DNA of 64,000 bases. Source: Mobula birostris. Taxonomy: Eukaryota. Shown piece by piece: positions 1 through 57,620 of this stretch. The notes beneath the pieces were generated by a model, which made no database searches, had not been told where the DNA came from, and worked only from the letters and a program-made list of their open reading frames with translations. The position numbers and the translations under genes are program-made. How positions within the stretch are numbered: the first letter of the stretch is position 1; each line of letters starts with the position of its first letter. The DNA lies in assembly GCF_030028105.1 (NCBI RefSeq), contig NC_092394.1, positions 21,429,939-21,493,938 on the forward strand, read 5' to 3'.

Positions 1-669
1 CCAGTCTCCTCTTTATTCCTCTCCATTCCTCTCCACAGGTGCTGCTGACCTGCTGGGTCCCTTCAGTATTTTGTGTGTGGTGCTCCCACCCTGCTGTTGG
101 CCAGCCTGTAGGTATGTCGCATATCCGTAGCAAGGGGAGCGAGCAGACTTGTCGGCAGGTTGATTGTCTGATAAACTCCATTTTCATGGTTGTAACTACA
201 CACTGGAATGTAAAGAAAAGGTGAAAAGAAAATACTGCTGTTTTAATCCGCTCACGATGTTTCTTTTGGTTCCATGCTCCCCTATATCACGGGAGGAATA
301 CAGTAGCGAGGCTGTGTTGCTCACAGATCAATTTCATCCATACTAACTTTGCCTGTAACCCAACACATACCTTTGTCAATCTTTCCTGAACACCATACAT
401 CCAGGTATATTTAGTAATCAAGGACGTCCATTGTTTTAGCCAGCATCCCAATCTCACATGGTCAGTTCACCCACAGCTCATCAACTTTGTTATAAATTTC
501 ATGCTTTCATTCATTAATGCATATTGGGATGGAAGTTGCAAATTTGGAAAATGATACTCAGGATGGGTACAGTTTCTAACCATGTGCACTACTGAGGAGG
601 GATTGAACACGTAGGGTGGTGATAGAGAAGCCAATTAAAATGTAATTTGATTTAGATAATAGCAAGTTC

Positions 670-5420: not shown

Positions 5421-5576
5421 AAACACAAAGTAATCTGCAGATGCTGGGGTCAAAGCAACACTCACAACAAGCTGGAGGAACTCAGCAGATCGGGCAGCAT
5501 CCGTGGAAAAGATCGGTCGATGTTTCGGGCCGGAACCCTTCGTCAGGACTGTAGAGGGAAGGGGCAGAGGCCCAAG
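5421..5576 (-). mobile_element. Penelope pseudo-LTR fragment with hammerhead motif (5516-5549), inserted in a Rex1 LINE
   Basis: Reverse complement GTC CTGACGA AGGGTTCCGGCCC GAAAC ATC GAC; direct repeat CCTCTTTACTT at 5410-20 and 5577-87. Confidence 0.75.
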
Positions 5577-7492: not shown

Positions 7493-7835
7493 ATAACACC
7501 TATCCAGATAGATCTCCACTCTTTTTTATACATGTGTCTATCTAACAGTCTCTTAAATGTCCCTAACATACAGTATTGTCCTCTACCCTGGCAGGTGTTC
7601 TATGCACTTAACACTCTGAGTAAATAAACTACAATTTTGAATTTAATGATCTTGAATTATGGATTACGAAGCTGATGATTTGTCATGTCATTTCCTCTCC
7701 TCAGTTTATTAATCTTATTAATCACACAATAGAGAAAATGCAAGTTAAAATTATATTAGTGATCCAAGTAACTCTGCTATGCTGAGCTGTCTCTCATAGA
7801 GAGTCTGCTATTCAAACTAGAGAGATAAAAGAATC

Positions 7836-7928
7836 AACACACATCAAATTTGCAGGTGAACGCAGCAGGCCAGGCAGCATCTCTAGGAAGAGGCACAGTC
7901 GACGTTTCAGGCCGGGACCCTTCATCAG
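7836..7928 (-). mobile_element. Penelope pseudo-LTR fragment; hammerhead core with 5' stem I arm truncated
   Basis: Near-identical to the 30278 and 55929 arms; reverse complement CTGATGA AGGGTCCCGGCCT GAAAC GTC GAC; flanked by AGATAAAAG repeats. Confidence 0.75.
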
Positions 7929-16055: not shown

Positions 16056-16897
16056 TACACTCTGTGACCACTTTATTAGACGTTATTAATGTAAATATCT
16101 AATCAACCAATCAATGGCAGCAACTCAATGCATGATAGAAACATGCTAACGTGGTCAAGAGGTTAGGTTGGACAGACCAAACATCAGAATGGGAACGATA
16201 TGTGATCTAAGTGACTTTGACTGTGGAATGATTGTTAGTGCTAGACAGGGTAGTTTGAGTATCTCAGAAACTGCTGGCTCCTTGGGATTTTCACACCTAA
16301 TGGTTTTTAGAGTTTACAGAAAATGGCATGAAAACAAACAAAAAAAAGCATATTCAGTGAGTGATGGTTCTGTGGGTGAAAATGCCTTGTTAATGTATGA
16401 CACACACAGAACACTGGAGGAGCTAGGTCCACTCTCCTCTCTTATCAGATTCCTCCCCCTCCAGCACTTTACCTGTCCCAACCACTTAGCTTCACCAATC
16501 ACCTTCTAGCTAATCCTCCTTCCCCCTACCCGCAACCTTTTATTCTGGCATTTTTTCACTCCCTTTCCAGGCCTGAAGAAGGGTCTCAGCCAGAAACATC
16601 GACAGTTTTGTTTCATTTCATAGATGCTGCCTGACCTGCTGAGTTATTCCAGCATTTTTGTGCACGTTGCTTTATATGTTGCTACTTACTTTCCTTGATT
16701 TTAAAGTTACATATCAATACAACTCTGAAGTTCCATCTGGTGACACATGGTGACACATAACGACGCATTCCAACAGCGGTGTGCAGAAGAGCATCTGTTG
16801 AAGTGGATGGGCTACAGCAGCTGAAAACTGCGAGTGTTCACTCAGTTGCCACTTTATTGGGTACAGGAAGCGCCTAAAAATGTGGCCACTGAGTGTA
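16056..16897 (+). mobile_element. Non-autonomous Tc1 transposon derivative
   Basis: TA-flanked TIRs cactc(t/a)gtg(a/g)ccac; N-terminal HTH DLSDFDCGMIVSARQGSLSISETA; no DDE domain seen. Confidence 0.8.
16399..16671 (+). mobile_element. Penelope pseudo-LTR fragment nested in a Tc1 derivative, with degenerate hammerhead at 16570-16603
   Basis: Pyrimidine-rich leader, then CTGAAGA AGGGTCTCAGCCA GAAAC ATC GAC and the family tail gatgctgcctgacctgctgag. Confidence 0.65.
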
Positions 16898-19676: not shown

Positions 19677-19860
19677 GAAAGACACAAGATATTCTGCAGC
19701 TGCAGGAAATCCAGAGTAACTCGCAGAAACCTCTGGATGAATTGAGCAGGGCGGGCAATATCTATGGAGAGGAATAAGCGTTTGATGTTTTGGCCTGAGA
19801 CCCTGAAACTCTGTTTACCTCTCTACGGATGCTAGCTTAGCTAGTATTTTCAATGTCACC
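19677..19860 (-). mobile_element. Degenerate Penelope/hammerhead-family copy (further decayed copies near 1-85, 17066, 24175, 26020, 50958, 57147, 57990)
   Basis: Shared motifs ctgcagatgctggaaat / ctggaggaactcagcagg / gtttc..gccgagaccct, recognisable with mismatches. Confidence 0.5.
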
Positions 19861-21096: not shown

Positions 21097-21248
21097 GCAC
21101 ACAACATGCTGGAGGAACTCAGCAGGCCAGTGAGCATCTATGGAAAAGAGTAAACAGTCAATGTTTAAGCCTGAACCCATCACCAGGAGACCTGCTGAAG
21201 GGTCTCAGCCCGAAACTTTGACTGTTTTCTCTTTTTCATGGATGTTAC
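21097..21248. mobile_element. Degenerate inverted-pair copy of the Penelope/hammerhead family
   Basis: gctggaggaactcagcagg...agcatctatggaaaagag and ctgctgaagggtctcagcccgaaac. Confidence 0.6.
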
Positions 21249-30265: not shown

Positions 30266-30611
30266 AAATAATAAGGTAACACACATCAGAGTTGCTGGTG
30301 AATGCAGCAGGCCAGGCAGCATCTCTAGGAAGAGGTACAGTCAACGTTTCAGGCCGAGAACCTGTAAGGCATGAAAATGCCCGAAGCTGGCCTCTCAGGT
30401 CTGAGTCAACGCCATCATTATCATCATCCTCTGGACCCTCTCCAATGCCAGTACATCTTTTCTGTCCTGATGAAGGGTCTCAGCCTGAAACGTCGACTGT
30501 ACCTTCCTAGAGATGCTGCCTGGCCTGCTGCGTTCACCAGCAACTTTGATGTGTGTTGCTTGAATTTCAAGCATCTGCAGAATTCCTCGTGTTTGCAAAA
30601 TAATAAGGTAA
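30266..30611 (+). mobile_element. Penelope pseudo-LTR-derived inverted-repeat element with 14-bp TSD
   Basis: AAATAATAAGGTAA at 30266-79 and 30598-611; arms ~30278-30358 and ~30478-30557; same family as 55917. Confidence 0.8.
30464..30497 (+). ncRNA. Minimal hammerhead ribozyme motif
   Basis: GTC CTGATGA AGGGTCTCAGCCT GAAAC GTC GAC. Confidence 0.7.
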
Positions 30612-54362: not shown

Positions 54363-55631
54363 ATCAGATGGGTTTTGAGCTAAATTCTTGCTGTAAAAGC
54401 ACTCTCAAATAAGAACTCCAATTCCATTTTAAACCAGATTAATTACATCTATAGCTTTATATATATACTAAAAGCATCCTGGGAAACCATTTATTAAACT
54501 TTAAGACTTCAGGCTCAAATTGTTTTGTTCACTCAGATTTACTATAAGAAATAGGAAGTGACAGAGCTGTGAAGCACATGTCAATTCTTTGGAAAAAAAA
54601 ATTCAACCAAATACCCGTGATCTTTGTTTTCTTTGTCTCCAACCTCCCACCACACCCTAAACCTCTTCCCTGTAACGTTTATATATCAGTACAAGTCATA
54701 TGCTTCAATATTTCTGGAATTGACCAAATTCTAAATCTGTTCTTGAGCATTGGTGCTGCTTCTCAAAACCAGAAGCTCTAGAAAATCTAAGGAATCAGAA
54801 CAAATTGCAATAGATCATTTTTCTTTATTGATTACTCTAATTATTTTAACATTACTATCATAGCTTCTGGACAAGATAAAACAGAACGAGTCAGGGAGAA
54901 AACTAATGAAATAAAAACAAACTTTCTGCAACTTTTTGACCATTTGTCTGTCTGCTACAAAGCTCTACTTCATCTCACATTCTACTACGCATACATTATA
55001 TTTAAAATAAGAACAGCATTTATTTACAGGAACAAATAGCTTGTTTATTTTATATTACACTTTTCTACAGCAACCACAAGCCACACCATAGTCTTTTTAC
55101 AGCATAATACCTTCCACAAAAGCGCAAAATATAGAACACATTGAGTACTGCAGGGCACAATGAAAATGGAGGCTGGAGTTTATGGAACTTGCCTGTTTGT
55201 GGTTTGTTCTGAATGAATTAAATTTAAGCCATCTTGGAATTCTATGTTGAGATAGGTCTCCCAAAAGAGACTGAGAATGGGAGACCCTGATTCAAATTGA
55301 AATTCAGTTTGACACTCCCACCCACAGGCAGTGAGTATATGTGGTTGAGGACCGTGCAGACACAAGGTGCCCAGCTAAATGGGAGAGAGGGAAAATCGGC
55401 AGTGGCTCTACCTTGGGTTGCACTGCGGCATTCGGCTCTAGAGTACCATCTGTGGAAGTCGTAGAGATGTACATGGCTGCCCTGCCTGCCGTTCTATCAG
55501 ATCAAATCCAGTATGAGAGACAGCCAGGAGGCAAATAGAGAGAAATTGTGAATCAAGAAAATAAAGAAAAGCAAGACATTGCAGACATGATCAATTAAAA
55601 CCATCTAAAAAATACAAAATGATGCACCTAC

Positions 55632-55832
55632 CTAGCCAGCAAAATGCCCTGGTACTCTTCCAGTTGTCTCATGAAACCAACATTCGGTTTAGTAACTGTG
55701 CGTTTCTCCTTCACATAATTGTAAGCTTCATCCAAATTCCAGCCATATTCTTTCATTGCATATGCAATTACAGTGGATGCAGATCTGCTGATACCCATCT
55801 TACAGTGGACAAGACATTTGGAACCATTTTTC
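55632..55832 (-). CDS. SSH2: SSH2 catalytic exon with HCKMGISRS active-site motif
   Basis: 201 nt, phase 2-2; KNGSKCLVHCKMGISRSASTVIAYAMKEYGWNLDEAYNYVKEKRTVTKPNVGFMRQLEEYQGILLA contains the HCX5R PTP signature. Confidence 0.98.
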
Positions 55833-55963
55833 CTGATGGCGGAAAAATACACAAGCATTTAGAATCAAACTATCCAAAAGCCACAAAAGCAGTTTTGCTT
55901 AAGAACCTAACATATGTACAAAAATATTCAGCAGGCCAGGCAGCATCTCTAGGAAGAGGTACA

Positions 55964-55997
55964 GTCGACGTTTCAGGCCGAGACCCTTCGTCAGGAC
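55964..55997 (-). ncRNA. Minimal type I hammerhead ribozyme motif (sense to SSH2 pre-mRNA)
   Basis: Reverse complement reads GTC CTGACGA AGGGTCTCGGCCT GAAAC GTC GAC. Confidence 0.72.
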
Positions 55998-56031
55998 GTC
56001 CTGACGAAGGCTCTCGGCCTGAAACGTCGAC
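55998..56031 (+). ncRNA. Minimal type I hammerhead ribozyme motif
   Basis: GTC CTGACGA AGGC-TCTCG-GCCT GAAAC GTC GAC: stem I GTC/GAC, CUGANGA, stem II, GAAA, palindromic ACGU in place of stem III, GUC cleavage triplet. Confidence 0.75.
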
Positions 56032-56694
56032 TATACCTCTTCCTAGAGATGTTGCCTGGCCTGCTGCATTCACCAGCAACTTTGATGTGTGTTCCTTGAA
56101 TTTCCAGCATCTGCAGAATTCCTGTTGTTTACAAAAATATTCAGATTATTTTTAAAAATTAGAATGAAGATAATTTTTAACACATTAATAGCTTAGCACC
56201 AAACAGAAGTGTAATTTCTGCAACAACATTTGAGCATCCCCTTTGTAATCAATTAACTCAAACATGCCCTATGGCAACTGTTTACCAAAATTAGGGCTGA
56301 AAAAGAAAGCACGTTTTTACTTTGGCGATTGTTTCTGTACATGATTGATTTTTGATACTCATGACTGAAGCTTGCTTTGAAAACACTTAAGTTTTCAGGA
56401 TTGGAAAATGATTTGCAGCAAAATGATTAAATATCAAAGTGACCAAATTATGCATGTTCTTTAACAGCATAATAAAATGTTATAACTTAAAATTAGACTC
56501 ATTACAATCACACAGGAAGCAAAATTCAGAATTACGAAAACCATATATGATCCAAACCATGCTATAATTAATCTAGATAAGAGCTGGACTTAAAAGTTTT
56601 TAACCAGACTATGTGAATATATTGTACAGAATTTGAAATTTAAAACATAATGGAAACTGCACAACACTGCATAAATTACTTCTAGATTACATAC

Positions 56695-56841
56695 TTTGCT
56701 TTGGAAATGAATTTATATGTATCATTCCAATACGCAAGTAGATCGGTAGCCTCCTCATCATATACTCTTATATTGTGATATTCAAATATTCCAGGGAAAA
56801 AGTTGTCAATTTCACGGGTGATGTTTAAAATGTATCGAATC
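56695..56841 (-). CDS. SSH2: SSH2 exon IRYILNITREIDNFFPGIFEYHNIRVYDEEATDLLAYWNDTYKFISKA
   Basis: 147 nt, phase 2-2, tttag/gtatgt sites; DSP domain including the VYDEE general-acid loop. Confidence 0.97.
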
Positions 56842-57620
56842 CTAAATGGAAATATTAAGAAATAAATATTAGGATTTACCATTGCCTTAAAGTGTAACAT
56901 CTATTCACAAGCACATAGGATGATTTTCAAAATTTTGGAGACTTACTAGGAATTAACAAAGGCAAAATAAGATTACAAAATAAATCACCCAAGTTTTCAC
57001 ATAACTTTTAATTTCTAGTCATTAAATGTGCCTTTAATTATTTTTATCTTACGGCTGTAAGATTATTCAAATGATTTTTTTAAACCCTCTGTTTGTTAGA
57101 AACTTTAAAAAAAATGGCAACAGATTATATTAGAAACACTCAACATGTCAGGCATTCTGACTAAGGGTCCTGGACTGAAAGCTTAATTCTGTCTCCTTTT
57201 TCTTCAGATGTTCCTCAACCTGTTGAGTATTTCCAGTATTTTCTATGTTTTTCAAATTTCTGGCATCTGCGGTTTTCTTGATTTTGGAATGGTTGGCATT
57301 GTGCAAGTGGCCTAAAAGATTCTTAAATATGTAATGTTCAAGGTTACTAGGAATCAAGATTTTTTTTTAAATCCGTGGAATATTGCTCAGAATGATAACT
57401 GAAAAAAATTACATTGTGTAAGTCAAAAAAACAGTTCCTTTATTAAATGTTTTGACAACATGTGCTAATTCTAAAATAAAAGCACAAAATACTATTTATG
57501 AACACATTACACTTGAAGTGTAGTACTTCATACTATATCTCCTTCCATAAACATGGTATTCATTGACATTTGGTTTGGTGGTTGGGGTAAATTTAACACT
57601 TTTTATTCCAGAAAACTTAC

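Follow-up and report, generated by a model that had tools for sequence, protein, structure and literature searches.

Insertion units of EN+ Penelope-like elements consist of a pLTR, an adjacent inverted and 5′-truncated copy, a tail of 30-40 bp at one end and a target-site duplication (TSD), as laid out in the accessible parts of two accounts (PMC3846280, Arkhipova et al. 2013; PMC8557442, Craig et al. 2021). How these elements form their inverted repeats is described as undefined in the accessible portion of PMC8557442. For minimal hammerheads, the G10.1-C11.1 pair has been listed as highly conserved, cleavage was undetectable for a lone minimal motif and low for dimers, and dual motifs on opposite strands lie 100-700 bp apart in Schistosoma (PMC4209133). 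In Poseidon PAc of Anolis (Frangieh et al. 2024, PMC11167929, available text), the hammerhead is located at the pLTR/ORF start and cleaved only when the PAc protein was present; this protein cuts and extends both strands, starting at two sites that flank the tail. Non-LTR retrozymes, according to the available part of a preprint (Li et al. bioRxiv 10.64898/2026.07.22.740005), are non-coding, carry a type I hammerhead, derive from a PLE pLTR, are found in a cartilaginous fish and are arranged as head-to-tail tandems.

Here we describe an insert in an intron of the ray gene SSH2, located in a window (the whole stretch of DNA that was analysed) of 64,000 nucleotides. The insert is very probably a 5′-truncated head-to-head double pLTR copy of an abundant Penelope-like element, complete with TSD and likely an inert passenger of the intron. 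Judged by the accessible text of PMC3846280 and PMC8557442, it is an ordinary Penelope-like insertion with a layout that is already described there. It shares with the EN+ units of those texts the head-to-head inverted pLTR, the junction palindrome, the tail on one arm, the TSD and the existence of an empty allele, as well as a parent ORF with reverse transcriptase (RT) together with a C-terminal GIY-YIG. It differs from the units as published there in having no ORF letters and in that both arms start at the ribozyme edge; in addition, the ray family has ~1e5 copies, and the short arm is 63 nt shorter than the long one rather than 30-40. Compared to the hammerheads of PMC4209133, the core letters, the loopless palindromic stem III, the short helix I and the extra A before stem II are the same, whereas the ray motifs touch each other, helix I is cut to 3 bp and the G10.1-C11.1 pair is missing in the subfamily. 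The hammerhead position at the pLTR/ORF start is that of PAc, as far as the available text of PMC11167929 goes. In that text RT starts 111-118 nt after the point where stem II begins, and the 3′ end of the ray family lies 121 nt after it; PAc targets are AT-rich, and the ray TSDs are 66% AT. An explanation for inverted products is absent from that text. The ray insert resembles the non-LTR retrozymes, as the preprint portion describes them, in being non-coding and pLTR-derived, in its type I hammerhead and in its cartilaginous-fish host. Unlike their head-to-tail tandems, it is a head-to-head pair made at insertion.

Architecture of the insert and its host intron

The features of the locus are as follows.

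56695..56840, minus strand: upstream SSH2 exon, amino acids 339-387 of the protein P0001
55833..56694, minus strand: host intron, 862 nt with the insert and about 649 nt without it
55632..55832, minus strand: SSH2 catalytic (HCX5R) exon, acceptor AG at 55834-55833
55917..55931, no strand: left TSD, 15 bp, its last 3 letters in common with the inverted arm; a single target copy in organisms C and D
55929..55997, minus strand: short inverted arm, pLTR +1..+69, sense to SSH2
55964..55997, minus strand: minimal type I hammerhead motif in SSH2 sense, stem I of 3 bp, with a cut predicted at 55967/55966; according to the fold prediction, hidden within the hairpin
55998..56129, plus strand: long arm, in antisense to SSH2, covering pLTR +1..+132 and including the 3′ tail; all three derived substitutions (56011, 56033, 56052) are in this arm
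55998..56031, plus strand: minimal hammerhead motif on the strand untranscribed by SSH2, predicted cut 56028/56029
56130..56144, no strand: right TSD

The preliminary description had reported a palindrome of 138 bp with 69-bp arms, 3 mismatches and no loop inside a 15-bp TSD, and alignment confirmed all of these. The arms, 55929-55997 and 55998-56066, meet with a spacer of 0 at the centre GAC/GTC and disagree at the position pairs 55984/56011, 55962/56033 and 55943/56052; a second alignment extends them to 72 nt at 94%. The two copies of the TSD, TACAAAAATATTCAG, occupy 55917-55931 and 56130-56144 and are 100% identical, and the final 3 letters of the left copy double as sequence of the inverted arm. 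The plus arm continues for 63 nt beyond the palindrome, to 56129, which gives an insert of 198 bp, or 213 bp together with one TSD. Throughout this work, pLTR positions are counted from the first GUC, whose G is +1.

The host gene was identified through P0001, a protein named SSH2-like by NCBI in a Mobula ray. The last exon of the gene is 100% identical to P0001, which is followed, among the matches to this exon, by ray and shark SSH2. The mapping of P0001 lies on the minus strand and spans from ~43 kb past the window end down to 41102, with nine exons passing the filter; amino acids 44-77, 139-248 and 388-453 did not pass, the last of these being placed by reading the printed sequence against the catalytic exon. 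The exon 55832-55632 encodes an HCKMGISR loop, matches Pfam DSPc with an E-value of 2e-23 and has SSH2 (2nt2) as its best PDB match; by its predicted product it is the Slingshot catalytic exon.

The parent Penelope-like element

The plus arm (+1..+132) matches numerous genomic places at 96-98%, with 43 matches when 40 of 3,248 candidates were scored. The long copies reach >1.5 kb upstream, where an ORF ends ~300 nt before the hammerhead. RVT_1 was found in 3/3 ORFs from the RT region with an E-value of about 1e-5, below the Pfam gathering score, and GIY-YIG in 3/3 C-terminal ORFs, one of them above gathering. One further RT fragment gave no match in Pfam, and comparison of the RT fragments with PDB gave 0 matches. 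In one long copy, L200 (also in L029), the pLTR with its hammerhead runs into the ORF start, forming the partial tandem typical of Penelope-like elements. The RT and GIY-YIG ORFs and the partial tandem in the long copies indicate that the insert is the pLTR end of a Penelope-like element. The origin from a Penelope pLTR with a minimal type I hammerhead, inserted in inverted form, was proposed earlier; the parent ORFs, the tail, the TSD and the empty sites all agree with it.

A 13-letter word of the hammerhead core has 123,687 exact copies in 4.0 Gb, as compared to 207 for a control, a count that includes older subfamilies having the same word; the 29-letter 3′ end has 28,504 exact copies in the same 4.0 Gb. 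At least 1,673 head-to-head pairs have no more than 30 letters between the cores (control, 0). The present locus is missed by this count because of its substitution at 56011, so that 1,673 is a lower bound. The same 26-letter apex is found at 22 loci, including the locus itself. When insertions were sampled by their 3′ end, an inverted arm was present at the 5′ end in 53/91 rows, or 52/90 insertions, the sample consisting of the 91 leading entries among the 28,504 3′ ends, which all lie within 9.7 Mb of the start of C1. Both cores are intact in 18/44 pairs whose two arms span the motif. Seven random 10-kb stretches, a sample too small for use, contained 6 BLAST pieces with one inverted pair. 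TSDs of at least 9 letters were seen in 69/95 pairs, with a mode of 14. With ~1e5 copies in the ray genome, the origin of inverted pLTRs would become testable by counting. In two much longer inverted insertions the arms measure 1.6 kb (L191, 97% identical) and 2.1 kb (L193, 95% identical); both are candidates for long dsRNA or cruciforms.

Hammerhead motifs on both strands

Each strand reads GUC-CUGACGA-stemII-GAAAC-GUC^GAC, with core letters and the GUC cut triplet intact on both; cleavage is predicted at minus 55967/55966 and at plus 56028/56029. The stem I of 3 bp at the locus falls short of a helix I of 4-5 bp. Long copies of the family form theirs from UAGUC/GACUG, with 4 bp and an added G.U, and at the locus the palindrome apex removed all but 3 bp of it. 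No hammerhead family was among the 8 Rfam matches of an E-value scan of 54500-57500. The view that a complete hammerhead is read on each strand thus stands for the core letters and the GUC triplet, but not for stem I or for an Rfam hammerhead match. Similarly, the substitution at 56011 does give the plus copy a perfect AGGC/GCCU stem II as proposed. However, this pairing belongs to the strand that SSH2 does not transcribe, and the change is private, being seen in 0/227 arms picked without regard to likeness with this copy. The G10.1-C11.1 pair is absent in both arms, with A-U or G.U at that place. It is noted that the majority allele of the family at +23, T in 177/229 arms, removes the same pair; the strong amplification of a majority subfamily with T at +23 suggests that cleavage is not needed for spread.

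The minus-strand RNA of the palindrome folds at -138.1 kcal/mol (z -25), and 0/200 shuffles were equal or better. SSH2 transcription yields the antisense copy first and then the sense motif. Folding of the growing transcript pairs the sense motif as it emerges, and the motif is predicted to be fully paired. The preliminary description is thereby supported in that the sense motif is preceded by its own antisense copy. The nearest intact-core sense copies lie ~25 kb upstream in the gene, and a second same-strand motif for a dimer fold was not found nearby. Masking of the sense motif is predicted by this modelling but would be redundant, as the motif is predicted hardly to cleave anyway given its short stem I, the missing G10.1-C11.1 pair and the lack of an adjoining dimer partner. 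It should be mentioned that no miRNA-precursor family reached its gathering score in the Rfam search of 54500-57500 (MIR6136, 51 bits vs 99; mir-5681, 50 vs 88). An identity with MIR6136 or mir-5681 was dropped, the scores being below gathering and driven by the hairpin.

Origin of the inverted copies

For comparison with the locus, 95 inverted pairs were assembled, a mix of loci picked by likeness, by pattern and by 3′ end. The long arms end at +126..132 in 93/95 pairs and the short arms at +86..+106 in 80/95. These ends match the one-sided tail in the accessible text of PMC3846280 and PMC8557442 and the two RT start sites of PAc in the available text of PMC11167929. At the present locus the tail is also on one arm, with an offset of 63 nt; here the end of the short arm, at +69, falls outside the usual range. 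The arms of a pair agree at four diagnostic sites in 66/70, 68/74, 68/75 and 65/71 pairs, while the maxima over 10,000 shuffles were 58, 56, 60 and 59. Subfamily alleles shared so far above the shuffles indicate that both arms come from one source family and did so at insertion. In six pairs (L146, L140, L087, L179, L185 and L085) the arms disagree at two of the diagnostic sites, and one of these pairs, L146, is a junction of two common haplotypes that possibly drew on two different RNAs.

The 5′ ends crowd at -10..+6, with 21 ends in 823 base-exposures (2.6% per letter), as compared to 0.41% at +7..+95 and 0.21% at -100..-11. The nominal P of 4e-12 for this pile-up applies to an interval chosen after seeing the data, and BLAST ends are good to a few letters. 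Per anchor, head-to-head joins number 1,673/123,687 at the core vs 11/57,114 at ~70 letters upstream, 70-fold fewer. Another 1,106 joins, a count with no denominator, lie just upstream of +33. The apex falls exactly at GUC^GAC, the predicted cut site, in 51 palindromes, seven of which lie together on C17 and possibly represent a single duplicated segment; L150, L122 and L208-L212 have such an apex as well. These apices are no proof of cleavage, since the 6-letter palindrome at that place also offers microhomology. Among 86 pairs, the long arm reaches further toward 5′ in 30, the short arm in 32, and the two are equal in 24. Junction coordinates were seen to recur (-335/-285 in L086 and L089; -379/-404 in L138 and L142), suggesting preferred inverted microhomologies or duplicated segments.

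We read the 5′-end pile-up, the join counts and the 30:32 symmetry as pointing to a template end near +1 and to two primings. The inverted copies probably represent two separately primed run-off cDNAs, with the template ending near +1, that were joined. The element endonuclease would nick both strands of an AT-rich site ~15 bp apart, and each 3′ end would start a cDNA, both of them on element RNA from a single subfamily. Priming would occur for one cDNA at the distal tail site (+132) and for the other upstream, usually at +86..+106 and at this locus at +69, on 3 letters of microhomology. Both cDNAs would stop at the ribozyme 5′ edge, where the template probably begins, and would then be joined blunt. 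A fold-back origin, in which a cDNA primes on itself near its end or self-primes on an antisense template and the apex is later lost asymmetrically, is the less probable candidate. The shared subfamily alleles of the arms also speak for it, several junctions use short inverted microhomologies (e.g. -7/+4), and self-priming on an antisense template has been proposed for rotifer Penelopes in the accessible part of PMC3846280. The 5′ ends of the two arms in long inversions are also coupled, if loosely, and in a manner compatible with fold-back and twin priming alike. However, were fold-back to start from a tail-primed cDNA, the long arm should extend further 5′ in every pair, against the observed 30 vs 32; the inverted arm reaches further 5′ in 12/17 long-range cases, and the short arms stop at a defined second site.

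With two separate primings as the preferred reading, the template end near +1 may just as well reflect a start of transcription as a spliceosomal acceptor. In L002, L004, L007, L008 and others, the native pLTR sequence at -25..+1 reads like a branch point, a pyrimidine tract and an AG acceptor. The one filler considered, 30364-30463 upstream of +1 in another inverted insertion of the window, is a piece of another repeat whose two full-length matches lack the following GT, and no common short 5′ exon was visible among 30 boundaries inspected. In D. virilis, the intron of the Penelope pLTR ends at helix I (PMC4209133), and the Penelope transcription start is placed inside the repeat in the available text of PMC2377424. 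A more tentative and rather doubtful extension is that the palindromes are twin 'strong-stop' products, that is, cDNAs primed on both nicked target strands and run off a fixed RNA 5′ end at the edge of the hammerhead, and that the 51 GUC^GAC apices are footprints of cleavage in vivo. If the twin strong-stop reading were true, the family would record an unexplained step of Penelope replication. Three observations at the level of the family, namely the crowding of 5′ ends at the edge of the ribozyme, the subfamily alleles common to both arms and the 30:32 symmetry, constrain the inversion mechanism in a measurable way. Our literature search, which covered the main text of mostly open papers, found no paper that links Penelope inversions to twin priming or reports a ribozyme-edge pile-up.

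Age and distribution of the insertion

In organisms C and D, one contig each bridges the flanks across an empty site with a single target copy. The flanks on these contigs are 620/567 letters in organism C and 73/568 in organism D, and the skip is 214 vs 213 expected. Contigs of organisms A and B enter the insert from both sides for 20-27 letters, under the 31-letter rule for presence; for organism B this is a strong hint that the insert is present. Across the organisms checked, the site is empty in C and D and apparently filled in A and B. The intron flanks differ by ~2% in organism B and by 4-5% in C and D. From these sequence comparisons, the insert is likely young and lineage-limited. It seems to be common to A and B, which fixation through drift explains and selection would also explain.

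The two arms at the locus differ at 3/64 letters (4.7%), ranking 52 of 82 pairs with a mean of 4.5%; arms of different insertions differ by 6.2%. Among loci L031-L190, the derived changes of the plus arm are C at +14 in 0/227, A at +36 in 4/237 and T at +55 in 1/246 arms, and A-to-G is not among the three differences. An origin of the arms from two different pLTRs, considered on account of the A/G at +36, was dropped, with A occurring in 4/237 unselected arms; the excess of A at +36 among L001-L030 results from those loci having been chosen by likeness.

Significance for SSH2

If the insert is the passenger that we propose, the SSH2 pre-mRNA would form a hairpin of 69 bp in which the sense motif stays unfolded. 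Splicing would remove this hairpin as part of the intron, and ADAR may edit it to no effect. Near-perfect duplexes of this kind are the type edited by ADAR. A rival reading accepts the same insertion and lets the hairpin act locally on SSH2, whether by A-to-I editing, by giving rise to small RNAs or by changing how the catalytic exon is spliced. The near-perfect 69-bp duplex predicted in the pre-mRNA speaks for it, as do the apparent presence of the insert in two organisms and the position of the hairpin edge, 96 nt from the acceptor of the 862-nt intron, in agreement with the ~100 nt upstream of the 3′ splice site of the HCX5R exon given earlier. Nevertheless, the site is empty in two relatives, the divergence of the arms is typical of pairs and well over a thousand similar hairpins exist in the genome. 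By eye, the likely branch point and pyrimidine tract are within the final ~40 nt of the intron, clear of the hairpin, and the P0001 protein model joins the exons 56840-56695 and 55832-55632 normally. We consider a local effect unlikely.

Still less credible is that the sense hammerhead is an active ribozyme cutting the SSH2 pre-mRNA at some rate. Its core letters are intact and, in the available text of PMC11167929, the PAc hammerhead does cleave with its protein present; yet the predicted pairing probability of the sense stem I is ~1e-37 in context, the hammerhead fold is worth ~ -4 kcal/mol vs -138 for the hairpin, and the cleavage reported for minimal motifs, undetectable when single and low in dimers (PMC4209133), argues against it. 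Only slightly better placed, and very improbable, is a palindrome that propagates itself as a non-autonomous unit, MITE-like or retrozyme-like. The 22 loci with exactly the same apex and the presence of TSDs would suit such a unit, but, among those aligned, the 16 with a +1/+1 start carry different subfamily alleles and have short arms that end variously from +56 to +105, the apices vary freely among pairs, the two ends are unlike each other, contrary to a MITE, and the head-to-tail tandem of retrozymes is absent. As for the head-to-head Penelope-like copy that we favor, it is likely inert, a judgment that draws on its recurrence, youth and decay as read from the genome. Points that weigh against our reading are the apparent occurrence in two species, the atypical end of the short arm, the low RT scores and the drawing of the 3′-end sample from a single chromosome end. 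The proposal of a self-silenced ribozyme holds insofar as burial of the motif is predicted. It is not supported as a special device, the layout being usual in the family, the site being empty in two relatives and the decay of the arms being typical. The insertion, young, lineage-limited and of known layout, likely has no importance for SSH2. The well over a thousand short perfect hairpins in the genome are a putative bulk source of dsRNA for editing or for silencing of the element.

Other hammerhead copies in SSH2 and in the window

The pieces of the element within the gene span include another two sense copies with intact cores and no adjoining antisense arm. The first, L222:8404-8547 (minus strand, ~18 kb past the window end), has the core and stem II as at the locus and a stem I of 3 bp plus a G.U; the second, L222:6681-6845 (minus strand, ~17 kb past the window end), has a full stem I and a G.G at the base of stem II. 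These unmasked copies are 1.7 kb apart and flank the 66-nt SSH2 exon for amino acids 78-99, and the nearer of the two has an 83% antisense copy at a distance of 4 kb. With two unmasked sense copies tolerated in SSH2, few cases as they are, masking is not needed for tolerance, and the earlier suggestion that masking could explain tolerance in the intron is not supported. The same two copies are better candidates for a dimer fold than the palindrome, one of them with the G.G in stem II.

A further inverted insertion of the family is present in the window at 30273-30593, within an interval (30266-30610) that has a 14-bp TSD. Between its arms lies a captured 100-nt piece of another repeat, which has a CAT-repeat tail. 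Older or solo related hammerhead repeats, at 72-93% identity, are located in the window at 5434-5550, 7832-7928, 16569-16672, 19691-19776 and 21107-21188.
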